The notes below the pieces were generated by a model. It searched no databases, was not told the DNA's origin, and was given only the letters and a program-made list of their open reading frames with translations. Both the position numbers and the translations under genes were made by a program. Below are positions 1 to 43,347 of a stretch of 64,000 nucleotides of DNA, in pieces. The number at the start of each line of letters is the position of its first letter. Within the stretch, counting starts at the first letter, position 1. The DNA is taken from positions 89,527 through 153,526 of the forward strand of contig JAYNIM010000001.1 in assembly GCA_038109055.1 (NCBI GenBank). The letters are read 5' to 3'. The stretch comes from a bacterium (GTDB lineage Bacteria > Margulisbacteria > Marinamargulisbacteria > GCA-2716485 > JAYNIM01).

Positions 1-558
1 ATTTAGACTGCTCTCCCAACTAGGTCCCCAACTTTGTTCAAAGCTGCCATAGCCAATAGCCCATTTTTTTATTTTTCTGATTATATAGCTATTATCATAA
101 GCTAGTTCTTTTTTGTTGTTCCAATCTTTTTGTATGTTTAGACTTAAATTCGCATGGTATTTTTTATAGGATTTTGGGAGGTTAATTTTTAGTCGGTTAT
201 TTACCTGTGTTGCGTTTAAAAAATAAGTAAAGAAATCCTGTGATTTATGTTGTATTTCTATGTTTCCTAAATTATTGTGAGGCTGATGGACTATTTTTTT
301 TAGTTTGTTGACTGCTTTTTTTTGATCGAAGTTTAAGTCGTTTTGATTGATGTTTTGATAGGCATCTCTTAAAACCGTTAGGTCTATGGGATAGCTGTTG
401 ATGTCTATTTTTATAATGTTTTGGTCGTTTAAATAATGGAGAAGATAGCGCTCAGAATAGGTGTTTGGGGTCCAGAAAAAAGCGTGATTATTTGCTTGTA
501 TTAGAACTGTATTTATTAATATGGATAGAACTAAAAAAAAAAAATTATGTTGTTTCAT
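1..558 (-). CDS. hypothetical secreted protein, 3' end cut by the window edge
   Basis: Hand translation of the minus strand is open from ATG (558-556) to base 1. It is absent from the ORF track because it has no stop in the window. Sequence: MKQHNFFFLVLSILINTVLIQANNHAFFWTPNTYSERYLLHYLNDQ...GYGSFEQSWGPSWESSLN. The N-terminus is hydrophobic and signal-peptide-like. The start overlaps the upstream ABC gene end by 14 nt. Confidence 0.55.
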   Translation of the reverse strand, partial: MKQHNFFFLVLSILINTVLIQANNHAFFWTPNTYSERYLLHYLNDQNIIKIDINSYPIDLTVLRDAYQNINQNDLNFDQKKAVNKLKKIVHQPHNNLGNIEIQHKSQDFFTYFLNATQVNNRLKINLPKSYKKYHANLSLNIQKDWNNKKELAYDNSYIIRKIKKWAIGYGSFEQSWGPSWESSLN

Positions 559-2284
559 TCTGAAATAATTCGTTATAGCTGCCTGTTTTGGAGATTTTTC
601 CTTGATCAAGAATGATGATTTTGTCTGCATGTTTGAGATTTGTGTGTCTATGTGAAATAGCAATTAAGGTATATTTTTCTTTAATGTTGTGCAGAGCTTC
701 TTGAATTTTTAAATCACTTTCATTATCTAATTGGGAGGTTGCTTCGTCAAATATCAGGCATTGAGGTTTTTTGAGTATAGCTCTTGCAATTGCGATTCGT
801 TGTTTTTGTCCGCCAGATAAACCACTGCCATTTTCTCCGAGGGGGGTATCGAGTTTGTTAGGGAGGGTTTCTATGAATTCCCAAGCATTTGCTATTTTGC
901 AGGCTTCAATTAGCTCCTTGTTGCTGGCATTTTCTTTTCCGATACATAGATTGTTTTTTATTGTTTCTTTAAATAGAAAAGGATTTTGTGGGACATATCC
1001 AAAATATTGTCGCCAGTTTTGTAGTTTGATGTCCTGGATAGGAATATTTTGACAGGTGATGTTTTGATTTTTTATGTGGTAGAAGCGTAATAGTAGGTAT
1101 ATAAGGGTGCTCTTTCCTGAGCCACTTTCTCCGATTATTCCTGTAAATTGCTTGTTTTTTATTGTTAATGAAATATTATTTAATGCTTTTTTTGTAGTAC
1201 TGTCGTATTGAAAGTAAAGATTCTTTATTTTTATGTCACCTAAGGTTTGTAGATCTTTTTTCCCTGTTATAACGTTTGATTTTGTTTCTAATATATCTTT
1301 AATTCGAAGAATACATGGAATGGTTTCTTGTATGTGTAGCCATTCTGCAATGAAGAGCTTGAGTGGGGCAGCTAAAAAGCCTATCATGGTGAAAAATTGT
1401 AATAATTCTTCTTTTGTTAATGTTTGGTTTTTTATTTGACTATTGCCACTGTATAAAATAAATAAAATAAATGGAAATATAATAAGTTCTTGAATAGGGG
1501 TACTGCTTATTTTTATTTTTATTCGTTTAAGTTCGGTTATGATGTAATCTTGATTAATTTTTTTAAAATTATTTATCATTTTATTTTCATAATTAAAGCC
1601 TTTGATTACTTGGATACCAAGTAACATTTCTTGTAACGTATGAAGCATTTTTGAATACATGCTTCGGATCATAGAAGCTTTTTTCTTAATGTATTGGCTG
1701 AGTATATAAATGATGATTCCAACGATGAGACTGCCAGAGAAACAGATTAAGGTTAACTTATAATTTATAATGCATAAGCTTGTGATTAAGCTTATGATGA
1801 CGAATGCGTTTAATATAAATTGTCTTCCGATGGTTTCAATTAAATTATTAAATAATTGAATGTCATCCATGAGAACGGCTAAGATTTTTCCAGAGTTTTT
1901 TTTGTCAAAATAATGAAAGTCTAATTGTATAATATGTTTGAATAATGTGATTCTGTACTTATATATTAGTTTTGTTCGGAACCATTGTAATAAATATTGG
2001 TATCCGAAGAAGCTTATATTTTTAATGAGTAGTATGGCGATTAAAAATATGGCTAAATTTAATAGAGTAGAGGTATTTATATGTAAAAAATTGTTTATGG
2101 TTTCTTGAATGTGGTTAGGAGTTAGTGGGATTGTAGTATTGTTTGTGCTTTGATGAAGGAAAGATCCAAGATAAAGACCTAATAACGCCGTAGATAAGCT
2201 ATAAATGATCCCTAGTATAAATATTAATAGAATATAGCCTTTAAATGCACTTATTTGTTGGATAAGATTTTTTTTAAAGTTCAT
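545..2284 (-). CDS. msbA: ABC exporter with fused permease and ATPase, MsbA-like lipid A/lipid flippase
   Basis: N-terminal 6-TM-type domain. Walker A GESGSGKST, ABC signature LSGGQKQR, Walker B LIFDEATSQLD, H-loop ISHRH. It lies directly downstream of kdsB-kdsD-kdsA and overlaps kdsA by 11 nt. The ABC call is firm; the msbA assignment rests on context. Confidence 0.75.
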   Translation of the reverse strand: MNFKKNLIQQISAFKGYILLIFILGIIYSLSTALLGLYLGSFLHQSTNNTTIPLTPNHIQETINNFLHINTSTLLNLAIFLIAILLIKNISFFGYQYLLQWFRTKLIYKYRITLFKHIIQLDFHYFDKKNSGKILAVLMDDIQLFNNLIETIGRQFILNAFVIISLITSLCIINYKLTLICFSGSLIVGIIIYILSQYIKKKASMIRSMYSKMLHTLQEMLLGIQVIKGFNYENKMINNFKKINQDYIITELKRIKIKISSTPIQELIIFPFILFILYSGNSQIKNQTLTKEELLQFFTMIGFLAAPLKLFIAEWLHIQETIPCILRIKDILETKSNVITGKKDLQTLGDIKIKNLYFQYDSTTKKALNNISLTIKNKQFTGIIGESGSGKSTLIYLLLRFYHIKNQNITCQNIPIQDIKLQNWRQYFGYVPQNPFLFKETIKNNLCIGKENASNKELIEACKIANAWEFIETLPNKLDTPLGENGSGLSGGQKQRIAIARAILKKPQCLIFDEATSQLDNESDLKIQEALHNIKEKYTLIAISHRHTNLKHADKIIILDQGKISKTGSYNELFQNETT

Positions 2285-3110
2285 CTAAATTTTTACAATA
2301 GTTGTGTATCTTTGTGAGTGTTTTGATGGTTGTTTCGCATTTTTTTAATGTTAACATGGTTGCTGCATCACTTTTAGCTTTTGTTGGATTTGGGTGTATT
2401 TCAAGAAAAAAACCTGAAACACCTATGCTTGCAGCTGCTTTTGCTAGATCTAATGACAGGTGAGGGTCTCCTAAACTGTGGCCTTGACCTTTTCCAGGTT
2501 TTTGGACGGCATGTGTGATGTCGTAAACAACCGGACAAAATGATTTCATGGTAGAAAGGGCTCTAAAGTCTACAACTAGATTTTGATAGCCGAAACATGT
2601 ACCACGTTCTGTGAGAAATATATTTTTATTGTTTGTGGAGTAAGCCTTTTCTAGTACATATTGCATGTCTTCTGCAGCCATAAATTGTCCTTTTTTGATG
2701 TTGACGGCTAAGTTACTTTGAGCAGCGGAGACGATTAAATCTGTTTGTCTGCATAGAAAGGCAGGTATTTGTATAATATCTATAATGTTTTTGATTTCGT
2801 TGACCTGCCATGTTTCGTGGATGTCAGTCATGATGGGAATTTGATACTTTTTTTTGATTTTTTCTAAGATTGATAATGCTTTTGAAAAACCAATACTTCT
2901 AAAGCTATTTATTGAGCTACGATTTGCTTTATCGAAGGATGCTTTAAACACGATATTTATTTGTTCTTCTTTTTGTAATTTAATTAAGAATTCTGCGATT
3001 TCGTCGCAAATACTCTCGGACTCAATTGCACATGGCCCACTGAAAAAAACCAGTTTATCTGTGCCTAAGGAAAGTTTTTTTGTTAAGGATATTTGTTTTA
3101 TTTGATTCAT
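2274..3110 (-). CDS. kdsA: 3-deoxy-8-phosphooctulonate (Kdo-8-P) synthase
   Basis: Full-length match to KdsA hallmarks: FFSGPCAIES, FKASFDKANRSS, MTDIHE, IPAFLCRQTDL, NIKKGQF, LTERG, YDITHAVQ. Confidence 0.9.
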   Translation of the reverse strand: MNQIKQISLTKKLSLGTDKLVFFSGPCAIESESICDEIAEFLIKLQKEEQINIVFKASFDKANRSSINSFRSIGFSKALSILEKIKKKYQIPIMTDIHETWQVNEIKNIIDIIQIPAFLCRQTDLIVSAAQSNLAVNIKKGQFMAAEDMQYVLEKAYSTNNKNIFLTERGTCFGYQNLVVDFRALSTMKSFCPVVYDITHAVQKPGKGQGHSLGDPHLSLDLAKAAASIGVSGFFLEIHPNPTKAKSDAATMLTLKKCETTIKTLTKIHNYCKNLDEL

Positions 3111-3114
3111 TTTC

Positions 3115-4086
3115 TTAGGTGTTTATTTTTCCTATGATATCGTGCAATCTAAGTAAACCGCAAAGTGTATTTTTTTTAGATATTACAGGAAGAATTGATA
3201 TCTCCGATGTTCTATTTTGCATTTTTTCTAAGGCTTCTTTAAGGGTTTCATTCTCTGTTGTTGTTAGTGGATTTACGGTCATGATGTCTTTTGCTTGAAG
3301 GTTTTCGAATTCTTTTTTCTTTTTAGCCATACGACGAATATCGCCATCTGTAATGATACCGAGTAATTTTTTATTTTTATCAGTAATGCATACAGCGCCT
3401 AAAGGTATTTTTGTTAAAATATCTAAGATTTCTTTACTCATACTGTTAGAGGTTAAACAGCATAAAGTATTTAATGGGTGCATGTTGTTTTTTACAGGTT
3501 TAAGTAAGTGGCCGAGTGTTCCAGCAGGATGATTCTTTTGAAAATCTGCTAAGGTTATTTTTTTCATTGACATGAGTGTGATGGCGATAGCGTCTCCCAT
3601 TGCTAATGTTGCAGTTGTGCTGCAACTTGGGAGAATGTTTAATGGGTCAGCTTCTTTTTTTACTTTTATTTCTATGTGATGCTGTGCCTTTTGTGCTAAA
3701 GGTGAGTTGTTATTATTTGTTAAGGCGATTGTCGTACAATTTTTGTGTTTAAGATAGATCAGTAAATCTAGGAGTTCTTGCGTTTTTCCGCTATTTGAAA
3801 GTAGCAGGCAACAACTTTTGTTTTCTATGATACCAATATCGCCATGTAAGGCTTCGTTTGGATGTAGGTAAATACTTTTTATACCTATACTTGTCAGAGT
3901 AGCGGTGATTTTTTTTGCAATGAGGCCAGATTTTCCTAAGCCCGAGAGTATGATAGGGTGCTTTGTTTTATTTAATAGTTCACAACAGGTAGTAAATGAG
4001 TGATCTAGATTATTGGCTAGGTCATTTAATACTCTTGCTTCAACTTTTATTACATTTTTTGCTATTTCTAAAAGGGTACTTGTCAT
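3115..4086 (-). CDS. kdsD: arabinose-5-phosphate isomerase (KpsF/GutQ/KdsD family; SIS domain plus CBS pair)
   Basis: SIS motifs GLGKSGLIAKKITATLTSIGIKSIYLHPNEALHGDIG and LLLSNSGKTQE. C-terminal tandem CBS-like region. Located between kdsB and kdsA. Confidence 0.88.
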   Translation of the reverse strand: MTSTLLEIAKNVIKVEARVLNDLANNLDHSFTTCCELLNKTKHPIILSGLGKSGLIAKKITATLTSIGIKSIYLHPNEALHGDIGIIENKSCCLLLSNSGKTQELLDLLIYLKHKNCTTIALTNNNNSPLAQKAQHHIEIKVKKEADPLNILPSCSTTATLAMGDAIAITLMSMKKITLADFQKNHPAGTLGHLLKPVKNNMHPLNTLCCLTSNSMSKEILDILTKIPLGAVCITDKNKKLLGIITDGDIRRMAKKKKEFENLQAKDIMTVNPLTTTENETLKEALEKMQNRTSEISILPVISKKNTLCGLLRLHDIIGKINT

Positions 4087-4091
4087 GCTAT

Positions 4092-4811
4092 TTAGATAGT
4101 TTTTAAATCTTCTGGAGAGTCTACTGCCTTGATATCCTTTTCATCGACTTCAAAGGTATGTATGGGGATAGTCATATCTAGAAATCTTAATTGTTCTAAC
4201 TTTTCTATATTTTCTAGTGAACTATTTTTATGCGTATTATATTTCTGTAAGATGTCTTTTGTATAGGCATATATACCGACATGCCCCCAATGTTGTTTTT
4301 TTTGTAGCCATTTTGTTTGTTCTAAATCTCTGAAGTAAGGGATACATTGTCTGGAAAAGTATAAGGCTTGGTTTTTGCTTGATTTTACTACTTTTACAAC
4401 ATTTTTATTTCTTAATTTTTCCAGGGTATTTATTTGATAGATAGGTGTTAAAATACGCTGTGTATTTTTTTTCCACTCTTGTGTAAAGCGGTTAATGAAA
4501 TCTAGATTACTTAGAGCTTCATCTGCTTGTATGTTTAAGATGTAAGGACTGTTTATTTCTTCTAAGTTGTTTGTAATTCGTTCTGTTCCACAACTACAAG
4601 GTTTGTCAGATAGAATGATGTTATCTACTTTGTTATGATATTTTTTTTTGATTTCATGGCTATCCGTTATGATGATACATTCTTTTTTAAAGGTGAATTT
4701 ATTTGTTTGATCTAAAAGGTAGTCTAATAAAGGTTTATCTTTTATTAATTGTATTATTTTATTGGGGAATCGTTTTGATTTTAAACGAATAGGGATTACG
4801 ATTGAAATCAT
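4092..4811 (-). CDS. kdsB: 3-deoxy-manno-octulosonate cytidylyltransferase (CMP-Kdo synthetase)
   Basis: N-terminal IVIPIRLKSKRFPNK (IPAR-S-R-P-K pattern), NIQADEAL (variant of QGDEP), EKLEQLRFL. First gene of the Kdo operon. Confidence 0.85.
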   Translation of the reverse strand: MISIVIPIRLKSKRFPNKIIQLIKDKPLLDYLLDQTNKFTFKKECIIITDSHEIKKKYHNKVDNIILSDKPCSCGTERITNNLEEINSPYILNIQADEALSNLDFINRFTQEWKKNTQRILTPIYQINTLEKLRNKNVVKVVKSSKNQALYFSRQCIPYFRDLEQTKWLQKKQHWGHVGIYAYTKDILQKYNTHKNSSLENIEKLEQLRFLDMTIPIHTFEVDEKDIKAVDSPEDLKTI

Positions 4812-4921
4812 AAATTTCAGTGTACTAATTTTATTGTTTATTTGTAAATTGATTTGGATAAAAAATATTGAGAATTAGATCTATGTTTTAATAGAGGGTA
4901 TTTTTTATTAAACATTTGATT

Positions 4922-4950
4922 TTGCGTTCGTTTTCGTTCTGTGTTATATA
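4922..4950 (+). promoter_or_regulatory. candidate sigma70-type promoter for the small + strand gene
   Basis: TTGCGT (4922-4927), 17-nt spacer, TATATA (4945-4950), about 45 nt upstream of ATG 4996. Pattern match only, in AT-rich DNA. Confidence 0.3.
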
Positions 4951-4995
4951 TGAGAATAAGCTTAATGGCTGAATAAAAAAAATATGGAGGATACA

Positions 4996-5172
4996 ATGGA
5001 ATTTTATAATGTTAAGTTGAAAAAGAAAGTAGAGGTTGATGAGGCTGATGTGGAAATAATTACCATGAAAAATGGTAGACCAGCTGCAAAAGCAGAGGTC
5101 ACTATTGAAGGTGAAACTCATAAAATGTTTAAGATCCTCTCAAAAGAAGAAGCTGCTAAAGTTTCAGGTTAA
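4996..5172 (+). CDS. small conserved-looking protein (58 aa), Cys-less relative of a small zinc-ribbon family
   Basis: GGAGG at 4986-4990 sits 5 nt before ATG 4996, so I prefer this start over the track start at 4984. Sequence: MEFYNVKLKKKVEVDEADVEIITMKNGRPAAKAEVTIEGETHKMFKILSKEEAAKVSG. The KNGR...F(K/R)I core resembles small CxxC...KNGR...CxxC proteins. Confidence 0.6.
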   Translation: MEFYNVKLKKKVEVDEADVEIITMKNGRPAAKAEVTIEGETHKMFKILSKEEAAKVSG

Positions 5173-5189
5173 TTTTTAGAGTTTGTTTA

Positions 5190-5198
5190 GGGGGGGGG
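5190..5198. repeat. G9 homopolymer tract in an intergenic region
   Basis: Direct reading: gtttag-GGGGGGGGG-cag, 18 nt after the stop of the 4996-5172 gene. Confidence 0.95.
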
Positions 5199-5463
5199 CA
5201 GTTATATCATCATAATGGATTTATTTAGGCATATAAATTAAGAAGTAATTATTTCCTTTTAATTTTTGACTCAATTTTATGTTGTTATTGTTAATGTTTG
5301 ATGCAAGGCAGTAGATGAATTTTGTATTTAAGAAAGTGCTTGAATTAGTGATATATCTTTTTTAGAGTTCTGGCTGTTTAGCTGTTGTTGGATTCTATAT
5401 TGTTAGTGATAACAGCTTCGCTGTATGTGGTTTTTTTGAAACTGATTGGGATTAATTTTATTT

Positions 5464-7857
5464 CTATTGGTTAATGATCCCTGCTTGTTTTCCGCTAATA
5501 ATTAAGTTGAATATTATTTGGGTTACATTTGTGACTATTTTTAGTATATTAGGGGGTGTTTTTATACGTTCTTCTATGTAAATAGAGTCACCTTGTTCAA
5601 TCACTCTTGGATTTATGATAATTTTTCCGTTAGCTTTAAAGACTAAGATTTTTCGTTTTAATGCAAAATAAGTGGTGTTTCCTGCTAATTTTATGTAGTA
5701 TTTTGTAGGTTTATTTTTTGTGTATAGGTAGTGCCCGGGTTTGTTTACACCACCTGCGATTTGTATAGTTTTTGGATGTTTAGGGATGAAGATGATGTCT
5801 CCATTATTTAGTTTGATATTAGATTCGGACGTTTTCAATTCTTTGAGTGTTTTAGGTGTGTGTAGGGATATTCTGTTTGTTTGTGATATTTTTAAGGATT
5901 CTAAATAGGCGATACTTGCTTGTTGTAACGGTATAAAGCTACTTGGATCCTTTAGTGGAGGCGACATTAAATATAAATGATTTAATTGTTCTTTGATTAT
6001 TTTGTTATATATATTTGACTTTTCTTTTTCAAGTTTTGGTCGATATAGTTCCAATCCGTATAGAAAACTATCTTTTTTTAGTCCGCCTGCTCGTTGTATT
6101 AGGCTGTATATTGTTTCATTTTGTTTTAGTGCATATTTACCAGGGTTTTGAATTTCCCCATCTAAAGTGACATATTTTGCTGTAGTGTACCCTTTGATTG
6201 TAGAAATGAATATAGCGTCGTTATTTTTTAATATAAAAGGCTTTTGTTCTTTGAGGTTGATTGTGTAAAGTCTTGTTTCTCCGTTTGTTTTGGTTCGTAA
6301 TATTTGTATGTTGCTTGTATCTGCATAAGGATGTAGTCTGGTTAGTTTTAGAGCCGTCTTTAGTGAGAGATCTTTGCTTAGATAGAATGAGCCTTCTTTT
6401 TTGATGGCGCCGTTAAGGGTTATTTTTACGTTCTCTCTTGATTCTTCTATGTTAGGGACCCGAATTATGTCCCATTCTTGTAATGTTATATTTTCTTCAG
6501 ATATGTTTGTAACAATGGTGTAGTAATTACCTTTTTTATCTCGTCTTAAAATTTCTATACTTTCTTTTTCTGCGTTTTGATTAAAGCCTTTACATTGTTT
6601 GATTAACTCTTTTAGGGTGAAGTTTGGTTGCAAGGGGTATATTCCAGGACTATGTATTTCTCCTAGTACTTTTACTGCGTTTGTTAAAGTATTAGTTTTT
6701 TTATGAACGATTACTCTGTCACCTGGGTGAATTTTTATGTTTTTGAGCACTTGATTGCTTTTGTTTTTTATATTTATGGCAATTGCTTGATTTTCTTCTT
6801 CTCGTAGAATGCTAAAATTTTGTGTATTTGCGTCTATTGTTGTCCCTGCACCGTATTTATATACCATGTCGTAAAGGCTTGTTTTATCATCTATTTCATA
6901 GATAGCTTCTCTGTTGATGGCTCCTTTTATTGAAGCTAATTTTTTAATGGGGGGGATATAGATGATATCGTTTTCTTTTAATGTTATATTATTTTTTATT
7001 TCTCCGTTAATTAAAAAATCGTATAAATCAATGACTCTGTTTTTGTTGCTTTTACGTTTAATTTGAATGTTTCGTAATGAGCCAACTTTTTTAGGGCCGT
7101 TTGCGTTGTAAAGTGTGTTTATTATGGAGGATTTGTCTTTTATTTCGTATGCACCAGGGTTATGAACCTCTCCTAATATAAATATAGTTATTGTTTTGTG
7201 TCCAACTAGGTTGATTGTTAGGTTTGTATTATTATATTTTTTATTTAATTTTTCTTTGATTATCCATTTTGCTGCTTTTATTGTTTTTTTTTGTAGTTTA
7301 ATAGCGCCTAATTGTGAAATATATATGGTATTGTGTGTATCTAAGGTGTAGGTTTGTTCTTGGTTAATTCCGCCCCAAAATCTTATTTTTATGCTGTCTC
7401 CTGGACCTAGTAGATAGTTTTCGTTTTCTGAGTTATGGATGTTATTGGGAGTATATTTTTTTAAGTACTCATATCCAAATTGTTTTATAATTGTTGAATT
7501 AGTTTCTGTGAGGTTAGATTTTGTTTCATTTGTTTCATTCTTTTTTAGAGTTCTTTTTTTTTGGGTATCAATCAATGTTTTTATGTCTTTAGGCGGTAAA
7601 GGTAGGTTTAGTTGAGTATTAAAGTATTGTTCGTGTTTTGATAGGTCAGTTTTATTTTGGTTTTTGGTGGGTGGGGTGCTTATTTTTTCTTTTACTTTTT
7701 TTTCTTTCTTATTTGATTGCTTACTGTAGAGCTCCTTTAATTTCATTATCTCCTTTAATTGAGAGGATGAAAATTCTTGGCTAATAGTGATTGTTTGGAT
7801 GCTTAAAATTAGTAATAGTGATAGGCTGAGTTGTTTTATTTTTGATATTTTTTTCAT
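5464..7857 (-). CDS. outer-membrane polysaccharide export (OPX) protein, Wza/KpsD family, with multiple SLBB domains
   Basis: Signal peptide. Poly_export-type motif LLGPGDSIKIRFWG...LGAIKL. At least four repeats of the SLBB pattern (V.V.GEV..PG.Y......TL..LI..AGG). At 797 aa it is much longer than Wza. Confidence 0.8.
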   Translation of the reverse strand: MKKISKIKQLSLSLLLILSIQTITISQEFSSSQLKEIMKLKELYSKQSNKKEKKVKEKISTPPTKNQNKTDLSKHEQYFNTQLNLPLPPKDIKTLIDTQKKRTLKKNETNETKSNLTETNSTIIKQFGYEYLKKYTPNNIHNSENENYLLGPGDSIKIRFWGGINQEQTYTLDTHNTIYISQLGAIKLQKKTIKAAKWIIKEKLNKKYNNTNLTINLVGHKTITIFILGEVHNPGAYEIKDKSSIINTLYNANGPKKVGSLRNIQIKRKSNKNRVIDLYDFLINGEIKNNITLKENDIIYIPPIKKLASIKGAINREAIYEIDDKTSLYDMVYKYGAGTTIDANTQNFSILREEENQAIAINIKNKSNQVLKNIKIHPGDRVIVHKKTNTLTNAVKVLGEIHSPGIYPLQPNFTLKELIKQCKGFNQNAEKESIEILRRDKKGNYYTIVTNISEENITLQEWDIIRVPNIEESRENVKITLNGAIKKEGSFYLSKDLSLKTALKLTRLHPYADTSNIQILRTKTNGETRLYTINLKEQKPFILKNNDAIFISTIKGYTTAKYVTLDGEIQNPGKYALKQNETIYSLIQRAGGLKKDSFLYGLELYRPKLEKEKSNIYNKIIKEQLNHLYLMSPPLKDPSSFIPLQQASIAYLESLKISQTNRISLHTPKTLKELKTSESNIKLNNGDIIFIPKHPKTIQIAGGVNKPGHYLYTKNKPTKYYIKLAGNTTYFALKRKILVFKANGKIIINPRVIEQGDSIYIEERIKTPPNILKIVTNVTQIIFNLIISGKQAGIINQ

Positions 7858-7970
7858 TTTTAGAATATGTTAGTATGTAAGAGAATAATTTTCAATTTAA
7901 ATTTTTTGTTTTTATAAACCTTGATTTTTTTTCTTGAAGTTAGTAACATTATTATTGTCCCGTTTGGGAT

Positions 7971-8007
7971 AAAGCTCTCGGAGATCCCCCCCCTATTCGA
8001 GAGCTTT
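7971..8007 (-). promoter_or_regulatory. intercistronic stem-loop with a 10-bp perfect stem and a 17-nt loop containing C8 (G8 in the transcript)
   Basis: aaagctctcg (7971-7980) pairs perfectly with cgagagcttt (7998-8007). The loop is gagat-CCCCCCCC-tatt. The stem starts at the last base of the secretin-like gene stop codon. No U-tract follows on the minus strand, so it is not a canonical intrinsic terminator. Confidence 0.6.
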
Positions 8008-8981
8008 TATAAAATCTCTGCTCTAACGAATATAAATATGGCAGAGTATGATATTTCTTCGTTGCTATAGTTAAAAATTTTTTTAAGTAATTTATTTTTT
8101 TTGAATTTTAAAATTCCCCCTGTATTTTTTTTCTTTTTGTTTTCAATTAATTTTGAAATTAATTTTGTCTCATTGTTTTGCAGAGTGAAATTATTTTTAA
8201 ATTCTCTTTTGGATAGTACGGGGTAGTTGTTTTCGCCTAATATTTTCCATAGTTTTACGTTGCTAATTTGGATGTTTTGTTTTATGTCAATTTCGGTTTC
8301 GTTTTTTATTTCGGCATAAATACTTATGTTTAGTCCATTTTCTATCTGTTTTATTTCTTGCCAGATGACGTCATTTTTTATGATGTTGTTTTGATAGGGA
8401 GTACTTTCACCGAACTTGATAGTATTTGTCTCACCTATTTTGCTAATAAAAGTAGGATTGGCGATCATTTTTGCTTCTCCTTCTTCTATTAAATTTTTTA
8501 GTTTTATATTAAATTCTGTTTTTATTTTTTCGTTTAAGGTGTTGGGATTGATGTAGAGGCCATTATTGAGTCGTGAAAGAGGGCCTTCGTTTTTTTTGTT
8601 GTTTTGAAAGGACGCTTCAATTATTTCTATGCTTATTTCTATAAATTTATCTTTTAGATCGATCGTTTTTATGAAACTTTCCAGGATATCTTTTTTTGTG
8701 TCGTTGTAGGTGATAAATAGTTGGTTTTGATTTTTATTTATAATGACGGATACATGGGGAAATTTTTCTAATATTAAACGTTTACATAGTGTTGGATTAA
8801 TGTATTTGATTTTGTAAAATAAGTTTTGCTGGTTGATTTTGTTTTCATCTAATTGAGAGAGTAGGCGTTGTTCTTCTTGATTTTGATAGGTTAGTACTGC
8901 AGTATTGGCATTCGTTTTTATGTTAAGTATCAGGATGCTTAATATAATGAGAAATATTACTGAATGTGTTTTGATGTGCAT
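8007..8981 (-). CDS. miniature secretin-family outer-membrane protein (324 aa)
   Basis: Signal peptide. By eye it aligns block by block with the secretin C-domain: IEISIEIIEAS; EAKMIANPTFISKIGETNTIKFGESTPY; GLNISIYAEIKNETEIDIKQNIQISNV; C-terminal SAIFIFVRAEIL (compare LMLFIRPTVI). Confidence 0.65.
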   Translation of the reverse strand: MHIKTHSVIFLIILSILILNIKTNANTAVLTYQNQEEQRLLSQLDENKINQQNLFYKIKYINPTLCKRLILEKFPHVSVIINKNQNQLFITYNDTKKDILESFIKTIDLKDKFIEISIEIIEASFQNNKKNEGPLSRLNNGLYINPNTLNEKIKTEFNIKLKNLIEEGEAKMIANPTFISKIGETNTIKFGESTPYQNNIIKNDVIWQEIKQIENGLNISIYAEIKNETEIDIKQNIQISNVKLWKILGENNYPVLSKREFKNNFTLQNNETKLISKLIENKKKKNTGGILKFKKNKLLKKIFNYSNEEISYSAIFIFVRAEIL

Positions 8982-8983
8982 GT

Positions 8984-9331
8984 TTATCTTTTAAATATAA
9001 GGGTTATATTGGGGTTATTTTTTTTAGAACTTATTTTTTCTATCTCATTCATGGATAGCCACTTTATAAGAAGCGATTTGTTTTTTTTGAGTTGATTTTT
9101 GTTTAATGTTATGACTATTCTTTTTTTTGTTTTATGTATTGATTCGGGGCTAATGATCTTTTTTAGATCTGACAGCATATTTTTTTTTATGATTGATTGG
9201 AGTTGTTGTTGATGGCTCGTATGTGTTTTTATTATGGTTTGTAATTTTTTTTTTGCTGTTTGCCAATCCTGAAAATGGCTTGCACATAGTAAGAATACGA
9301 TGGGGAGAGATATGTATTGATTAATTTTCAT
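8984..9331 (-). CDS. hypothetical small exported protein, possibly a lipoprotein (115 aa)
   Basis: N-terminus [20 protein letters not shown] (hydrophobic, with a Cys). Lies 2 nt from the secretin-like gene and is overlapped by 11 nt by the upstream gene. No recognisable domain. Confidence 0.5.
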   Translation of the reverse strand: MKINQYISLPIVFLLCASHFQDWQTAKKKLQTIIKTHTSHQQQLQSIIKKNMLSDLKKIISPESIHKTKKRIVITLNKNQLKKNKSLLIKWLSMNEIEKISSKKNNPNITLIFKR

Positions 9332-10079
9332 CTTTTGTAAGTTTAAATTGACTTTTTATTGTGATGGTTTGTTCTTTTTTTTTTGTTTCTAAATTTATTA
9401 ATGAGATCTTTTCGTTTTGTAATAGTTGTTTTATGGAATTTTTAAACTTTTTTATTCTTTTTAGGGGTATTGTTGAGGTAATTTCGGCGTTATTTTTGTG
9501 GTGATTTAGAGTTTCAATGGGTGTTGTATATTCGCTTAGTAATGTGATGAAGGCCTTGTTTTTTTGTTTTTGTTTGTTTGTATAGGTTTTATATTTTTCT
9601 TGTATTTGTAGGGTGTTTATACTGTGATTACTGAGTGTATGTATGTGGAGATGGATTGTTTTATTTGAAATTGATAGTAATAAGAGGGTTATTATAGCGA
9701 TATAATTATAGGGAGAAGGAAGTGGATGAAGGCTTTTGTCTAGGACTTTTTTTAGGGTAGTTTTGTTTTGTTTGGTGAGTATTTTGATTGTGTGTTCGTT
9801 AAATATTTCTTTTAGTTTGGCTTGAATTTTTTGTGTGTTTTGGCTGTGTTTTAGCTTGTTGTTGATTAAGTTTTGATTGATATATATGAGTAGTATGTTA
9901 TTTGTGTTGATTTTTGAGCAAAGTTTATGTTGTTGTTTTGGGTTATTAATAAAACAAAAAAAGGATAGGTTTGTTTTTTTGTTATTTACCGTGTGATAAT
10001 CCTTATTGAAATGTATAGTTTGATGCATAGCTAAATATTTTATTTTGTATATTTTATTGTAACTTTTATTATTTATCAA
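9321..10079 (-). CDS. hypothetical single-pass membrane protein (252 aa); the position would suit a PilN/PilO-like secretin accessory
   Basis: Central TM segment [14 protein letters not shown] followed by K/Q-rich helical sequence. First gene of the three-gene secretin module. The start is uncertain (M1 at 10079 or M18 at 10028). Confidence 0.45.
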
Positions 10080-10092
10080 TAAGGAGTGTTGG

Positions 10093-10509
10093 GTGAAATC
10101 ATATAGAAAGGTGTTGTGTTTACATATTGATAAACGAAGAGAGTTTGTTAATATTACGGGGCAGGTTCAAGAGGCTTTATTAGATAGTGGGGTTAAAGAG
10201 GGGTTGCTTCTCTGTAATGCGATGCATATTTCGGCCTCTGTATTTATTAATGATGATGAATCAGGCTTGCATGCGGATTTTGAGAAATGGCTGGAGGGCT
10301 TAGCTCCAGAAAAACCTTATGAACAGTATGCTCATAATGGTTATGAAGATAATGCAGATGCACATCTTAAGCGAACCATTATGGGGCGTGAGGTGGTTGT
10401 TGCTGTGACGGATGGACAATTAGATTTTGGGCCTTGGGAACAAATTTTTTATGGCGAATTTGATGGTAAGCGTGATAAACGTATTTTAATCAAGATTATT
10501 GGTGAATAA
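10093..10509 (+). CDS. yjbQ: YjbQ/UPF0047 family protein (secondary thiamine-phosphate synthase-like)
   Basis: Family-typical sequence: [93 protein letters not shown] start preceded by AAGGAG (10080-10085). Confidence 0.85.
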
Positions 10510-11206
10510 ATCAGATATTCGTTTTTTTGATTTATTTTCGCAACAGACTTTGGTTATATCGTCGAGTCGACCTACCAGGTGTTTTTTTTGTTCTTCTATT
10601 CATTCACGAAACGTTTTTCCGGACTCTAAGAAAGGTATTCCTAAACTATTTAATATGATTCATTCAGAATTGGATATTGATGAGACGATTTTGGATACGT
10701 TGAAAACTATTAAATCAACAGGTGCTAAATGTCGCTTATGGACGCCTTTATTATATTCATCTGATATTATTAATTCTTTTTTTGATTATGTGGATGAATG
10801 GGTGATTTATCTACCTGTTGCTAATCAGGCATTTTATCGTAAATTAACTGGATTTGATGCGTATGAACGGGTGCTCAAATCTTTGAATTTTTTAGGGGAT
10901 CATCAGCAAGCTTTTTCCTTGTATATGCCGATTAAATCTGAAACCGTTTCTTATGTTCCGGATGTACATGATTTGGCTTTTCATTTTTCTGTTCCTTTAT
11001 ATCTTTATTTTTCTTCGCAAGCATTTAGACAGAGGGATACGGTGAAGTTTATTTTACGTTATCGCTCTATTAAGGATGTGTATGTTTTTAAGATGGCACA
11101 ATCCGTGTTTTTTCCTTGCAGTGTAAAGAGGGGAACTTTGTTGGTTCCGCCTTGGCAGTGGGGGATGAATCGTTTGAGATATACATTATTTGGCTTTAAG
11201 AAATGA
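10499..11206 (+). CDS. hypothetical protein with weak radical-SAM/TIM-barrel-like layout but no CxxxCxxC
   Basis: Overlaps yjbQ by 11 nt. The region [19 protein letters not shown]...[37 protein letters not shown]...[11 protein letters not shown] resembles the core strands of MoaA/PqqE-type radical SAM enzymes. Only CFFC is present where the cluster motif is expected. Confidence 0.5.
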
Positions 11207-11287: not shown

Positions 11288-12145
11288 ATGAGTATTCTAA
11301 CGTTTCAGGTTATTATTGAAAAACTTCAGCGGTTTTGGCAGGCGCGGGATTGTGTGATTGTTCAGCCTTATGATGTTGAAAAAGGAGCGGGGACCATGAG
11401 TCCACATACCTTTTTGCGGGCATTAGGGGATGATCCTTGGCGTGTGGCGTATGTAGAGCCGTGTCGACGACCTACCGATGGGCGTTATGCTGAAAACCCT
11501 AATCGTTTGCAGCATTATTTTCAGTATCAGGTTTTGTTAAAACCTTCGCCGAAAGATGTACAGGCTGTTTACATTGATAGTTTGATTGCGATTGGGATTG
11601 ATCCGAAACAGCATGATATTCGTTTTGTTGAAGATAATTGGGAATCCCCGACTTTGGGGGCTTGGGGCTTGGGCTGGGAAGTGTGGTTGGATGGAATGGA
11701 AATTACGCAGTTTACCTATTTTCAACAGTGTGGGGGCTTTCCTTGTGACCCTGTTTCGGTGGAATTGACCTATGGTTTAGAGCGTTTGGCGTGTTTTATT
11801 CAAGGCAAGGACAGTGTCTTTGATATTGTCTGGCAAACTCAGGGTGATAAAGAGATTTTATATTCGGATATTTATAAGCGATCAGAAATAGAACAGTGTC
11901 ATTATAATTTTGAGTTGGCTTCTAAAGACCGTTTAGGGATTTTTTTTGACGGGTATGAACAGGAATCCTTACGTTGTATTCAAAAATCATTGGTGTATCC
12001 AGCTTATGATGCCTGTTTGAAGTGTTCGCATCTTTTTAATTTATTGGATGCCCGTGCTGCGATTTCAGTGTCTGAACGCCAGCAGTATATTTTACGAATT
12101 CGTCAATTGGCCAAATCAATTGCGGAGGTCTATCTGAATGGTTAA
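11288..12145 (+). CDS. glyQ: glycine--tRNA ligase alpha subunit
   Basis: Near-invariant blocks [81 protein letters not shown]. Confidence 0.95.
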
Positions 12146-14189
12146 GTATGTCTTTGAATTGGGACTTGAAGAAGTTCCGGCTCGTTTTTGTCGTTCATTG
12201 ACAACTTTGGTTGACGAGCGAATACGGCAGTCATTATCTGATGCGCGTCTTTCTTTTGACGGGGTGTCGGTGATGATGACGTATCGGCGTTTGGTTATTT
12301 GTATTGATGGGTTGGCGGAGTCACAGACGGATATTTCTCAGCAGGTGATGGGGCCGCCATGTCAGGTTGCGTATGATGCTGAGGGGCAGTTAACTGCTGC
12401 AGGACAGGGGTTTTTAAGAAAAATTGGAGTGGATATTTCGCAGGTGCAAACCAAGCAGGATGCGAAAGGTCGGGATGTGTTGTTCGTAGAAAAATCCGAG
12501 TTGGGTTCTCCTACCTCTCAATGTTTAGGCGCGTTGATTCAGACACTGGTCGAGAACTTACCTTTGTCGATTGCGATGCGTTGGGGTCAGGGGCAGGGGC
12601 CTTTTGTTCGTCCTGTGCAGTGGGTATTGAGTCTGCTGAATGATCAGCTACTGCCGATAACTTTGTTTGGGGTGACCGCAGATCTCTATACTTTTGGACA
12701 TCGCTTTTTGTCTGAGGATAGGTCTGATCATTGGTTAGGATTGAGGATCTCTGTAAGATCGGCAGAGACCTTTATTCAGCAATTGCAAGATGAAGGGCAG
12801 GTAATTTTAGATCCGACACAGCGCAAGCAGGTGATTTGTGATGCTTTGCCTGATGGGGCTATGTTCGTGGATGATACTTTGTTGGAGGAATTAGTGTATT
12901 TGTCGGAATGTCCAGGGGTGTTGAGGGCTAAGATCACCGATGATTTTTTGACCTTGCCTCATGTTGTCGTTGAAACCTGTTTGACCAAGCATCAAAAATA
13001 TATTCCTCTTAAAGATGCAGATGGGCGTTTGACGGGGGACTATGTTCTTGTATCGGATAATTTGACTGCGGATAATGATGCAACGATACGTCAAGGTAAT
13101 GAACGGGTGTTGGTGGCACGATTACGGGATGCACAGTTTTTTTGGGAACAGGATCAGAAAGTAGGTTTGATGGCCTATGCACAGCGTTTGGAGGGATTGG
13201 TTTATCAAGCTGGTTTGGGGAGTATGGCGGATAAGCAGCGACGACTATTGGCTATATCTAGACAGTTAGCTGAGGCTTATTTTTCCTGTGATACAGCAAG
13301 TTTGGAGGCGTTGTGTGCCTGTTCGAAGGCGGATTTGATGTCGTTGATGGTGCAGGAGTTTCCGTCACTTCAAGGATATATGGCGGAGGCGTATGCCCGT
13401 TTGGAGGGGGCTCCAGAGTTACTTTGTGTTGCTTTGAGAGAACAATATGAACCACGCACAGCTTCAGGGACATTACCGCAAAGTGATTTGGGAGTGATGC
13501 TTGCGATGGCGGATCGTTTAGATCATTGTGTTGCGGCTTTTATTTTGGAACAAAATCCCAGTGGCTCGCGTGATCCATTGGGGATACGACGTTCGGTGGT
13601 GGCTCTGCTGCGTATTGCTTTGGATCGGGATTTGGATGTGAATTTTTCTGAGTTGTTTCGCTGTGTATATGAGGTTTATGGAAAGGAGTCACTTTATGCG
13701 GCACATGCAGAGGTGATAGAAACCTTTGTGTTGCAGCGCATTCAGTCGCAGTTTGAGGCTTTGGGATTGGCTTATGATGTGGTGGCAGCGGTGTTGCCGC
13801 TTTCGTATGTGTCTCTTGTTACGGCTTATCGCCGCGCTTTGGATTTGGCTGATTTTAAAGCAAAGGATGTATCGGGGTATAAAGCCTTTGTTGAAACAGG
13901 CCTTCGTGTTAGACGTTTATTACAAAAGCAGGATTCCTTTGTCTTAGATGAGGGCTTATTTGAGATGGATATTGAGCGAGATGCTTATCTTGGTTTACAG
14001 AATTGTGTTACACAAGAGGTGCTATCTTTACAGGCTTTAACGCCTTTTGTGACTGTTATGACGCGTTATTTTGAAGATGTGTTGGTGATGCATGATAAAC
14101 GTGATATCCAGCAAAATCGTTTGGCGTTTTTACAGCAGTGTCATGCTGTGTTTGCTACTTGGGGAGACTTAGAAACATTAGTATTGTAG
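12138..14189 (+). CDS. glyS: glycine--tRNA ligase beta subunit
   Basis: Overlaps glyQ by 8 nt. N-terminus [11 protein letters not shown], plus [26 protein letters not shown] and QAGLGSM, all typical of GlyS. 683 aa. Confidence 0.93.
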
Positions 14190-33200: not shown

Positions 33201-34262
33201 TTAGAAATTTGTACGAAGACCAAAACGAATTGACTCTTCTTTACTTGCGTCTACTTTAGGATCTGATTCGTAGCTTTGGTAAACAAGATAGGCATTTGTT
33301 TTTTTCGTAAGGCCTGTTTCTGCAGCAACTTTGATTCCTTCATATGCTGAACCAGTAATAAAGGCTGTGTCATCTTCGAAAGAAAGTTTTGTGCTGGCAT
33401 CGTTTGGTGTTCCAAATGAATTTGCTTCTACTTTTCTAGATTCAATTCTAGCATTCCAGCTGCCTAAACCTTGTACTTTTTTGTCACCAACTACAACACC
33501 AATCGCTTGGCTTTTACCTTTTGTTGTAGCTTTTCCGTTTTCGTTCATTTCTGCATAAACACTTACGTTGTTTACACCTGGAGAAGCGAAGTCACCTTTA
33601 ATACCAAAAACGGTACTTTCTAGTTTGTTAGCTTCTGCAGCAGTGTCGCCGTCAAGTGTTTGGTAGATGGCAACATAACCTTCTGCTTTGATTGTGGGAG
33701 AAATTTCATAAGATACTTGTGGTTGGATACCGAAGAACTTTTCACCTTTAGTAGTGCTGCTGCCCACTGTTTGATATTCATCTAGTACACTGTAAGCAAC
33801 ATTTATTGAAAAATCAGCTTGAGGCGTGATTTTTGTTGTGTAGCTTCCACCAAGTATATCCAATTTCAAATCTGGATCGAATAAGACAGTGCTGTATGAA
33901 GTGAAAGGAAGTGCAGCGCGACCTAAAGTGACCTGTAGGCCAGGTGCTGCTTTCCATTCGATGTTTAATTCGTTTATGTTAACTGGTATTTGAGTTGTTT
34001 TTGTTGTGCTAGCCCAAGTTGATCTTCTATCACTTCCTGTGCCGATTTCGTAATTTACTTTGAATCCATCAGGTAAACGTTTGCTACCATTTAATTTTAG
34101 TGACTGCTGAATGCTTACTGTGCTGTCTAGGCTGCCTATTTTTAGGCTTGTAATTCGGGCTTCGTGCTCGCCGTTAAAGTTTAAAAAACCCGCTTGAGCT
34201 TGTGTGGATAACAATGCTGTTGCAAGTAATCCTAATAATATTTTTTTATTTTGTTTAATCAT
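33201..34262 (-). CDS. outer-membrane beta-barrel porin; the context suggests a phosphate-selective (OprO/P-like) role
   Basis: Signal peptide ending AQA. Alternating beta-strand pattern. C-terminal FGLRTNF with terminal Phe. Sits between pstS and the divergent pstCAB-phoU. Codon and base composition deviate from neighbouring minus-strand genes. Confidence 0.6.
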   Translation of the reverse strand: MIKQNKKILLGLLATALLSTQAQAGFLNFNGEHEARITSLKIGSLDSTVSIQQSLKLNGSKRLPDGFKVNYEIGTGSDRRSTWASTTKTTQIPVNINELNIEWKAAPGLQVTLGRAALPFTSYSTVLFDPDLKLDILGGSYTTKITPQADFSINVAYSVLDEYQTVGSSTTKGEKFFGIQPQVSYEISPTIKAEGYVAIYQTLDGDTAAEANKLESTVFGIKGDFASPGVNNVSVYAEMNENGKATTKGKSQAIGVVVGDKKVQGLGSWNARIESRKVEANSFGTPNDASTKLSFEDDTAFITGSAYEGIKVAAETGLTKKTNAYLVYQSYESDPKVDASKEESIRFGLRTNF

Positions 34263-41856: not shown

Positions 41857-42606
41857 ATGACTAATTATTTTTATACCTTGCTTGATTCTTTTGGATCGTT
41901 TATCTTGTTTTCTTTACGTGTTGTGAAGGGGGTGTTTGAGCGCCTTTTTGATTGGGATCGTGTGTTTGATGAAATGTATCGTTTGGGTGTTCAAACCTTG
42001 CCTGTTGCGTGTTTGACTCTCCTTTTTGTGGGCATGGCGTTTACGTTTCAAATTATTCAGGAATTTATTAAATTTGGGGCAACAAAATTGATTGGGGGTG
42101 TGGTTATTTTAGCGATTGTGCGTGAATTGTCCCCCTTATTGTTAGGCGTAGTTGCTAGTGGTCGTATTGCGGCATCTATTGCAGCTGAATTGGGGAGTAT
42201 GAGTGTTACGGATCAGATGGATGCCTTGAAGTTATTGGGTAAAAACCCTGTTTCTTTTTTGGTGCCACCTAAGTTGGTAGGAGTGGCCCTTATGTTACCT
42301 TTGTTGGTTTGTTTATGTCATTTTTTGGGGTTTTTAGGAGGTTTTTTGATTGTTTTTTCTAGTAATAGAATTAATCCTTTTAGTTATTTTCAATCTGCTC
42401 AGGTGATGTTAAGTTTTCATGATATTTTTAGTAGTTTGATTAAAGTTTTTTGTTTTGCGATTGTGATTGTTTTAGTGAGCAGTTATTTTGGATTAGCTTG
42501 TAAAGAGGGCGCTGCGAGTGTCGGAAAAAATACAACAAGAGCGGTGGTAGTTTCGTTGGTTTGTGTGTTTATTTTAAATTATTTTTTATCTAATTTATTG
42601 TTTTAG
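41857..42606 (+). CDS. mlaE: MlaE-family ABC transporter permease
   Basis: LGVQTLPVACLTLLFVGMAFTFQ, REL.PLL..VV.SGRIAASIAAELGSM.VT.Q.DAL. Typical of MlaE/YrbE. Confidence 0.82.
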   Translation: MTNYFYTLLDSFGSFILFSLRVVKGVFERLFDWDRVFDEMYRLGVQTLPVACLTLLFVGMAFTFQIIQEFIKFGATKLIGGVVILAIVRELSPLLLGVVASGRIAASIAAELGSMSVTDQMDALKLLGKNPVSFLVPPKLVGVALMLPLLVCLCHFLGFLGGFLIVFSSNRINPFSYFQSAQVMLSFHDIFSSLIKVFCFAIVIVLVSSYFGLACKEGAASVGKNTTRAVVVSLVCVFILNYFLSNLLF

Positions 42607-42608
42607 AT

Positions 42609-43343: not shown

Positions 43344-43347
43344 ATAT

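Follow-up and report, generated by a model that had tools for sequence, protein, structure and literature searches.

A conserved three-gene mini-secretin operon beside a KpsD-like polysaccharide exporter gene in a marinamargulisbacterial genome

The minus strand of a 64,000-nucleotide stretch of a marinamargulisbacterial genome (contig JAYNIM010000001.1 of assembly GCA_038109055.1; the whole analysed stretch is hereafter called the window) carries four co-directional open reading frames (ORFs) that encode a bitopic membrane protein (p252), a small membrane-anchored protein (p115), an unusually short secretin (mini-secretin) and a long outer-membrane polysaccharide export (OPX) protein. The best explanation of this arrangement, with a probability of about 0.7, is that two independent envelope units, namely the trio of p252, p115 and the mini-secretin and an OPX protein of Class 2B, lie side by side, and that their juxtaposition is specific to this genome and does not constitute evidence of a composite translocon. 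The independence of the two units is suggested by the facts that the trio recurs without an OPX gene and shares the yjbQ/glyQS site with some of its relatives, that the OPX protein has a terminal helix of its own, and that a hairpin and an intergenic gap separate the units. The four genes are the following.

9321..10079, minus strand: p252, first gene of the trio, 252 aa, TTG start (ORF call)
8984..9331, minus strand: p115, second gene of the trio, 115 aa (ORF call)
8007..8981, minus strand: mini-secretin, third gene of the trio, 324 aa (Pfam Secretin)
5464..7857, minus strand: OPX protein, 797 aa (Pfam Poly_export, SLBB and SLBB_2)

The original prediction, which was made from the DNA letters and ORF translations, had placed four co-directional minus-strand genes at exactly these positions. 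All four gene identities proposed there are correct, as is the description of the first three genes as a miniature secretin module, and this module is a conserved unit. An independent Logan contig (6.2 kb) carries the same genes in identical order; on that contig, p252 is called from an alternative start, an in-frame ATG at codon 18 (nt 10028), which yields a 235-aa product. Inside the trio, the p252 and p115 genes overlap by 11 nt and 2 nt separate p115 from the secretin gene, compared with the gap of 149 bp between the secretin and OPX genes.

The trio is a conserved, self-contained operon of the Marinamargulisbacteria/UBP8-type lineage, with a secretin that is genuine but minimal. Scanning of the GTDB genomes and JGI metagenomes with a 14-sequence subset of the mini-secretins yielded 15 loci, and one further locus comes from an ENA contig; the named sources of these loci are Candidatus Marinamargulisbacteria and ‘bacterium UBP8_UBA817’. 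In every locus for which upstream sequence is available (13 loci), two genes immediately precede the secretin gene, with junctions that are overlapping or nearly so. The secretins of these 13 loci consist of 319–359 aa, the product of the preceding gene is 114–162 aa long and has an N-terminal transmembrane (TM) segment, and the product of the first gene is 197–294 aa long, with a TM segment detectable at residue ~90–150 in most cases. The surroundings of the operon are far less uniform. The genes located 3' of the secretin vary by locus and include those for FolP/FolK/TsaE-like products (locus L004), a DAHP synthase and an rluD-like pseudouridine synthase; the genes preceding the trio vary as well, and no conserved neighbour pertaining to type IV pili (T4P) or the type II secretion system (T2SS) is present in the 13 loci (~10 kb of flank per locus).

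A shared chromosomal position can nevertheless be recognized in several loci from four genes that, in the window, are divergent from the trio.

10093–10509, plus strand: yjbQ, synteny anchor
10499–11206, plus strand: p235, synteny anchor
11288–12145, plus strand: glyQ, synteny anchor
12138–14189, plus strand: glyS, synteny anchor

As judged by tblastn, YjbQ (72% identical) adjoins the trio divergently in the related loci L004 and L009, and p235-GlyQ(67%)-GlyS do so in L010 and L017, as in the window. In another related locus, L005, from the UBP8_UBA817 metagenome-assembled genome (MAG), the trio divergently adjoins a run of FlgI, FlgH, FlgG-like, FlgF-like and FliK-like genes (436–8051 of L005, minus strand). 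A flagellar link of the trio through flgH/flgI/flgG/fliK was rejected given that this arrangement is seen in no other locus, and the adjacency in L005 is probably coincidental. A 1212-aa Sel1 protein is encoded near the trio in a distant relative (1218–4856 of L002).

The proximity of the OPX gene to the trio does not extend to the relatives of either. An OPX profile hidden Markov model (HMM) produces no match in the 15 mini-secretin loci (up to 10 kb per side), and the secretin profile HMM produces none in four loci of OPX homologues, which hold genes for Wzz/GNVR, Bac_transf, YjbH or Wzi, or else unrelated genes; the suggestion that the adjacency might be conserved is thus answered in the negative from both sides (0/15 and 0/4). 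In the window itself, the boundary between the units is marked by a G+C-rich hairpin that begins at the last base of the secretin stop codon, inside the 149-bp gap.

7971..8007, minus strand: hairpin after the secretin gene, 10-bp perfect outer stem (AAAGCUCUCG/CGAGAGCUUU), G8 tract in the loop region

This hairpin was spotted by eye and then folded, with a dG of −21.6 kcal/mol and a z of −3.3 (2 of the 200 shuffles are equally stable). Because a clean U-tract is absent, a role as terminator is only suggested, and the element is best described as a candidate terminator, attenuator or 3' stabiliser at the end of the trio transcript. A scan for consensus promoters and terminators gave counts under the shuffle expectation and, with its loop limit of 3–8 nt, missed the hairpin. 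G/C homopolymers of at least 8 bases occur only twice in the 64 kb, on either side of the OPX gene: one (7986–7993) lies in the hairpin loop upstream of this gene and the other (5190–5198) lies downstream, just after a 62-aa ORF. Their number is not significant when compared with shuffled sequences (11/100), but slipped-strand phase variation of the exporter would be in keeping with where they lie.

The OPX protein is readily recognized at the sequence level. It scores 49.4 bits with Pfam Poly_export (cutoff 28), 109 with SLBB and 105 with SLBB_2, which places it in the OPX family, and when the OPX-family profile is compared with the PDB, it matches Wza (E = 3e-35) and, at profile positions 664–790, GfcC (3P42; E = 3.2e-5), so that the assignment to the Wza/KpsD family stands. 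The domains and motifs, all on the minus strand, are arranged as follows.

N-terminus, minus strand: signal peptide, SPI-type, no lipobox
aa ~53–121, minus strand: low-complexity linker
aa 144–217, nt 7207–7428, minus strand: Poly_export domain (Pfam)
aa ~225–605, minus strand: series of SLBB beta-grasp domains
aa ~560–765, minus strand: GfcC-like C-terminal region with a helical hairpin (profile and fold)
5470..5553, aa 769–796, minus strand: C-terminal amphipathic helix, putative outer-membrane span, NILKIVTNVTQIIFNLIISGKQAGIINQ

With Poly_export, SLBB(n), a GfcC-like module, a terminal helix, an SPI signal and a length of ~800 aa, this is a Class 2B (KpsD-like) OPX protein. Both features by which the class is recognized, the GfcC-like module and a C-terminal helix of ~25–38 residues beyond it, are present, and with its 797 aa the protein falls outside Class 3, the members of which are short, with hardly any sequence beyond the last SLBB domain. 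Saidi et al. (bioRxiv 10.1101/2022.02.11.480155) have already classified long OPX proteins that carry a terminal helix, and argued that, in Class 2B proteins, this helix may span the outer membrane.

The terminal helix is the feature on which the relationship between the two units turns. In the AlphaFold2 (AF2) model of the OPX protein (31-sequence alignment, mean pLDDT 76.6), residues 769–796 form one helix of 28 residues according to DSSP and lie beyond the last beta-grasp domain. The helix has a hydrophobic moment of 0.52, a value attained by 0.2% of the shuffles (p ~0.002), and the polar residues K772, T775/N776, Q779, N783, S787 and Q790 share one face, as deduced from the sequence. A hydrophobic or amphipathic tail of ~30 residues follows the conserved GDTIxVP motif in 29 of the 30 OPX homologues; the lone protein without the tail stops directly after the last domain. 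The original prediction, in contrast, had found no obvious C-terminal amphipathic outer-membrane helix and, from this presumed absence, had argued that a separate outer-membrane channel would be needed. That premise fails because the protein has the Class 2B architecture, in which a conserved terminal helix follows the GfcC-like region.

In other respects, too, there is nothing unusual about the OPX protein, which belongs to a widespread family of long OPX proteins. Foldseek with the model retrieves Wza (the top match), the Class-3 protein WzaB and GfcC (3P42; E = 4e-8, TM(target) 0.59). There are at least 124 homologues at E < 1e-10, mostly of 750–1000 aa, from Margulisbacteria, Firestonebacteria, Riflebacteria, Geobacter, Shewanella, Pseudoalteromonas, Verrucomicrobia and Bacteroidota. 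Pfam Caps_synth_GfcC (PF06251) and Wza_C give no direct match in the window protein at E ≤ 0.1; PF06251 is among the precomputed annotations of some of the homologues. A family of 41-nt direct repeats with a spacing of ~507 nt is detected within the OPX gene (6119–7173 of the window); these repeats are most likely a reflection of the tandem SLBB domains, at their conserved PG-Y motif region, and not a DNA element in their own right. The possibility that a mobile-element boundary surrounds the OPX gene was rejected, with only chance-level repeats found in addition to the internal SLBB ones.

The third gene of the trio encodes a member of the secretin superfamily, annotated by NCBI as a hypothetical protein. 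Its score with Pfam Secretin (PF00263) is 51.4 bits, above the curated threshold (27.5), as is the case for the OPX call. The scores with the NCBIfam models of individual machines are far under the respective cutoffs (PilQ, 30.8 bits compared with 284; HofQ, 27.8 compared with 554; MshL, 27.0 compared with 250; GspD, 14.4 compared with 351), and the same holds for SctC; by these profile scores, therefore, the mini-secretin belongs to the superfamily but not to the equivalog of any named machine. A profile made of 55 sequences of the mini-secretin family matches GspD in the PDB with E = 1.6e-45, PilQ with ~1e-31, pIV with 6e-30 and RcpA with 3e-26, and InvG is matched, too. The AF2 model (pLDDT 86, pTM 0.70) consists of the following parts.

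aa 1–25 approx., minus strand: signal peptide (AF2 model)
aa 35–46, minus strand: short helix (AF2 model)
aa 52–107, nt 8661–8828, minus strand: single N3-like domain, beta-alpha-beta-beta-alpha (AF2)
aa 113–323, nt 8013–8645, minus strand: barrel with eight long strands (AF2)

The model thus agrees with the earlier description of the protein as one N-domain followed by the secretin core. The top Foldseek matches are all secretins (PilQ, GspD, InvG and pIV, with a probability of 1.00), in keeping with a double-walled barrel fold preceded by a ring-building domain of the N3 type. The N0, N1, N2, AMIN and S domains are absent from the model, and the 324 aa leave no room for N0.

The short length of the mini-secretin is a family norm and not a result of truncation, as indicated by the fact that nearly all its relatives are 300–350 aa long. 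An exhaustive HMMER search of 1.84 billion representatives detects 336 relatives, with 96 clusters at E < 1e-10, to which this length range applies; a word-indexed homologue search matched the query itself only. The family (~320 aa, ~100 sequence clusters) is uncharacterised and comes from aquatic metagenomes and Marinamargulisbacteria/UBP8 MAGs. No description of a ~320-aa secretin family or its partners, and nothing relevant on Margulisbacteria in combination with secretins, secretion or pili, was found in the literature searched. The window protein is the most divergent member of the family: near-invariant residues of the C-terminal motif are lost (P291L, P297K, G300K, D314A and P321A), and its profile score, 271 bits, is among the lowest (326–382 for the ten top-scoring loci). 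Five invariant residues of the family are retained. The best PHROG match is the M13 protein IV (E = 2.9e-16, aa 29–324), and no relatives were found in IMG/VR.

The two partner proteins are recognized mainly by position and layout. In p252, an N-terminal cytoplasmic region of ~130 aa is followed by a short TM segment at aa ~135–150 and a periplasmic region with a coiled coil and a putative alpha/beta part. The position of the TM segment was read from the alignment with the positional homologues, in which it corresponds to a clear TM segment, and supports the earlier call of a single-pass protein. The p252-type proteins share a cytoplasmic domain of ~100–130 aa that bears a FLN(D/N) motif of its own. 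Among the 194 ORF segments of the window, p252 is the top match of a profile built from 11 positional homologues from other loci (E = 4e-10, with a high composition bias). The protein p115 consists of an N-terminal hydrophobic anchor and a periplasmic domain of ~90 aa, and ranks first with the profile of the small proteins, albeit without significance (E = 0.17). It had been described as exported or lipoprotein-like; its F-L-L-C departs from a canonical lipobox, and the Cys is not shared across the family. Neither family has a Pfam, PDB or PHROG match. Comparison of the accessory families with HofN/HofO of Escherichia coli by hhalign gives a probability below 1%, in what is a weak test with a single-sequence target, and no relation is detected between the p252 and p115 family profiles when they are compared as possible paralogues. 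Because the accessory families match no known family, the trio resembles PilN-PilO-PilQ or GspL-GspM-GspD in gene order and topology alone.

A tentative picture of the two units can be drawn by analogy. The mini-secretin would assemble into the usual gated 12- to 15-mer outer-membrane pore, and p252 and p115 may build a periplasmic alignment complex, anchored in the inner membrane, that docks on the N3 ring in the manner of PilN/PilO or GspL/GspM. The trio could then serve a machine of the type IV filament kind (a pilus, a DNA uptake apparatus or a T2SS-like system), with the ATPase, platform and pilins encoded elsewhere; the chance that such a machine is the one served is roughly even. The OPX protein would oligomerise like Wza, with its C-terminal helices forming an outer-membrane passage for a polysaccharide.

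Several observations weigh against this reading of two units, one of them serving a remote machine. No pilin and no T4P or T2SS ATPase or platform is encoded by the scanned window ORFs of at least 150 aa, no pilus or T2SS gene is seen in the window or in any fetched flank, and the step to a machine encoded elsewhere is purely inferential. The mini-secretin is without N0, the domain by which classical secretins contact the inner-membrane platform, and the 12 + 12 members of the accessory families have no Pfam match to PilN, PilO, PilP, T2SSL or T2SSM at E ≤ 1. For the OPX protein, there is neither a polysaccharide co-polymerase (PCP) nor a KpsE partner in the window, and we know of no Class 2B protein for which membrane insertion has been demonstrated. 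The terminal helix is modelled at low local confidence (pLDDT 46–59), which is attributed to the modelling of a monomer, as the helix would pack only in the oligomer. The lack of adjacency elsewhere is also compatible with a functional interaction in trans.

Finally, the trio and the OPX gene look like parts of one compositional block.

1–10079 of the window: ten-gene low-G+C block (possible Wzi, MsbA-like, KdsA, KdsD, KdsB, 62-aa ORF, OPX, secretin, p115 and p252)

These ten genes, those of the trio included, have a low G+C content of 0.26–0.35 and are N/K/I-rich, with a FYMINK fraction of 0.30–0.50; for comparison, most of the other window genes have a FYMINK fraction of 0.15–0.33 and a G+C content of 0.36–0.47. 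In eleven relatives, the G+C content of the trio is within ~8 points of the mean of its own flanks. Such a common composition is a hint of some joint history of the trio and the OPX block in this genome. It is the sole positive hint of this kind and does not demonstrate a functional link; possible causes are the replacement of the whole envelope segment from a lower-GC relative, or regional AT drift.

The foremost alternative to two independent units is a composite translocon, in which the polymer crosses the periplasm by way of the OPX protein and the mini-secretin, kept in position by p252 and p115, substitutes for the beta-barrel pore of the Wzp/PgaA type. The adjacency and common direction of the two genes fit this scheme, and so does the aberrant composition of the 10-kb block, which the trio does not show in its relatives; the window also encodes no PCP that would bridge the OPX protein to the inner membrane. 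Secretins are reported to be necessary for slime secretion in cyanobacteria and myxobacteria (PMC12475490), and Margulisbacteria are listed among the close phylogenetic neighbours of Cyanobacteria (PMC6349859). The scheme is nevertheless improbable: the OPX protein's own conserved C-terminal amphipathic helix removes the need for a partner pore on which it was founded, none of the 15 mini-secretin loci has an OPX gene and none of the four OPX-homologue loci a secretin gene, the hairpin and the gap part the two units, and the trio is found at its ancestral syntenic site whether or not an OPX gene is near. About as doubtful is a version in which the trio is a self-sufficient gate without a pilus machine that is co-inherited with the OPX/Kdo block and works with it to release a surface polymer; if that were true, this lineage would release polysaccharide or slime through a secretin nozzle that directly partners an OPX protein.

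Detached from the OPX protein, the trio might be a stand-alone minimal secretin machine that involves no pilus or T2SS, for example a gated nozzle for a polymer (slime or DNA) or for a few proteins. To our knowledge, every secretin characterised so far functions together with a filament or needle machine, which speaks against this possibility, as does the absence of any energy-source or substrate gene linked to the trio. On the other side, the trio is always a compact three-gene operon with no conserved T4P/T2SS neighbour across the 13 loci, although the flanks inspected reach ~10 kb per locus and partners could be further off; the secretin lacks N0, the classical docking domain; the partners belong to no known family; and secretin-dependent slime secretion provides a precedent. 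On balance, a free-standing gate is unlikely, if not to be dismissed lightly. That the trio is a degenerating, non-functional copy of a larger PilMNOPQ or Gsp operon is far less credible. The divergence of the window secretin, with its lost near-invariant residues and low profile score, and the extremely AT-biased composition would fit a decaying copy, but all three ORFs are undamaged, their lengths and junctions agree with those in the relatives, none of the five invariant residues of the family is missing, AF2 confidently folds a complete barrel and the short architecture is the norm in the family. The notion of an orphan PilN/O-PilP-PilQ-like remnant, raised in the original prediction, is accordingly retained only in part: gene order and topology do resemble PilN-PilO-PilQ, but the operon is tight and conserved in many genomes, and its two accessory proteins have no detectable sequence relation to PilN/O/P or GspL/M. 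Least probable by a wide measure is a phage derivation, with a pIV-like pore left behind by a filamentous prophage. The M13 protein IV is the best PHROG match and, like the mini-secretin, a short secretin, with which the family profile aligns over nearly the whole length; GspD, however, outscores pIV by far, and no Zot/pI ATPase or other inovirus gene is present among the flanking genes scanned. A phage origin was rejected on the strength of the absence of IMG/VR relatives combined with chromosomal synteny that is stable across species.

The genes that follow the OPX gene in the window, apart from one small ORF, are involved in envelope biogenesis.

4984..5172, plus strand: 62-aa ORF between the OPX gene and kdsB, also called on the Logan contig, MEFYNVKLKKKVEVDEADVEIITMKNGRPAAKAEVTIEGETHKMFKILSKEEAAKVSG
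4092–4811, minus strand: KdsB (NCBIfam KdsB subfamily, 227 bits, cutoff 193)
3115–4086, minus strand: KdsD/KpsF (NCBIfam KpsF/GutQ family, 242 bits, cutoff 204)
2274–3110, minus strand: KdsA (NCBIfam, 356 bits, cutoff 242)
545–2284, minus strand: MsbA/HepA-type fused ABC exporter (MsbA, 369 bits, below the equivalog cutoff of 602; HepA family, 310 bits)
1..558, minus strand: possible Wzi-like gene, N-terminal 186 aa, runs off the window (Pfam Caps_assemb_Wzi)

The 62-aa ORF lies in the 650-bp spacer 3' of the OPX gene and breaks the co-directionality of the OPX and Kdo genes; it has no Pfam match and a weak PHROG match of unknown function. The possible Wzi gene, with a truncated product, scores 19 bits with Caps_assemb_Wzi (E = 7.9e-4), under the cutoff of 30.1; a Wzi gene is also found near the Geobacter OPX homologue. 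The genes for CMP-Kdo synthesis, the MsbA/HepA-type exporter and the possible Wzi gene would point to export of a Kdo-linked glycolipid, capsule or lipopolysaccharide (LPS)-related product. The segment does not qualify as a group 2 (kps) capsule locus, with only a KpsF/KdsD-like protein, a KdsB/KpsU-like protein, KdsA and an MsbA-type exporter present. Among the scanned window ORFs, there are no ABC-2, KpsE or Capsule_synth domains, and none of those of at least 150 aa encodes a PCP, Wzx, Wzy or KpsMT. The earlier statement that the window contains no pilin, ATPase, Wzx/Wzy or KpsMT therefore holds for ORFs of this size but was incomplete in that it passed over the ABC exporter, KdsA, KdsD/KpsF, KdsB and possible Wzi located downstream.

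Further away, the window contains MlaE-MlaF-MlaD genes (41857–44652, plus strand) and a gene for a putative porin (33201–34262, minus strand); together with the Kdo and MsbA-like genes, these fit a diderm envelope with an LPS-type outer membrane. A 934-aa protein with 8 Sel1 repeats (263 bits) is encoded at 22901–25705 (plus strand). Sel1 proteins are typical of host-associated bacteria. An intracellular placozoan symbiont has been assigned to Margulisbacteria in published work. The GC skew is positive in all 2-kb bins of the window (0.06–0.41) whatever the gene orientation, the AT skew is mostly negative, and the cumulative GC skew climbs monotonically; this pattern suggests that strand asymmetry is very strong in this genome and that all 64 kb belong to a single replichore.

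The findings on the mini-secretin and the OPX protein do not overturn current understanding. For this locus, a partnership between the OPX protein and the secretin can be set aside, which spares follow-up effort. The trio may show how little suffices to build, dock and gate a secretin pore, and the mini-secretin could be a handy minimal system in which to study secretin assembly in the absence of N0, an S-domain and any recognisable pilotin. The trio also offers a handle on the envelope machinery of a candidate phylum with host-associated members. The involvement of a secretin in polysaccharide export, which the original prediction considered new, has been partly overtaken by a report of 2025 according to which slime secretion by cyanobacteria and myxobacteria requires PilQ/GspD secretins (PMC12475490), so that the link as such is no longer unprecedented. 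The secretins of these slime nozzles are those of T4P/T2SS machines, and that report proposes no OPX partnership for them.

Among the known OPX systems, the composite translocons of Myxococcus are those in which an OPX protein unable to span the outer membrane is paired with the product of an adjacent channel gene (Wzp), an 18-stranded beta-barrel. The Class 3 OPX proteins have a median length of 256 aa and no C-terminal helix (bioRxiv 10.1101/2022.02.11.480155). The window OPX protein differs from those of the Myxococcus Class 3 systems in being long and having the helix, and its neighbour is a secretin, in an adjacency that is not conserved. To E. coli Wza (2J58), the top fold match, it is related through the N-terminal PES and first SLBB domains (E = 3e-35), and its C-terminal amphipathic helix is analogous to the D4 helix of Wza (Wza_C); it differs in having double the length of Wza, additional SLBB domains together with a GfcC-like module, no lipoprotein character, and a gene neighbourhood devoid of Wzc and Wzx/Wzy. 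The closest correspondence is with the KpsD-type Class 2B proteins of Saidi et al., with which it shares Poly_export, the SLBB series, the GfcC-like region, the terminal helix and a Sec/SPI signal without a lipobox, at a length of 797 aa compared with the class median of 824 aa. The differences are that its relation to GfcC is found only at the profile and fold level and that, in contrast to KpsD systems, there is no KpsE/KpsMT/KpsC/KpsS in its vicinity, the nearby exporter being of the fused MsbA/HepA type.

The mini-secretin, for its part, shares a complete barrel and one N3-type domain with GspD, PilQ, HofQ, pIV and RcpA. At 300–350 aa, the family is shorter than the shortest solved chains listed (387 aa for the GspD type, 414 for pIV and 426 for RcpA) and than E. 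coli HofQ (412 aa), and its partner proteins are unrelated by sequence to those of these secretins. PilN has an N-terminus of the INLLP type, in place of which the p252-type proteins have the FLN(D/N) motif, and, unlike the PilN/PilO systems, the trio has no accompanying PilM or PilP gene. What the trio has in common with PilN/PilO (HofN/HofO) and GspL/GspM is the order of the overlapping genes, a bitopic protein, a smaller bitopic protein and the secretin, and the topology of the partners, with a TM segment, a coiled coil and a small, putatively alpha/beta periplasmic domain.

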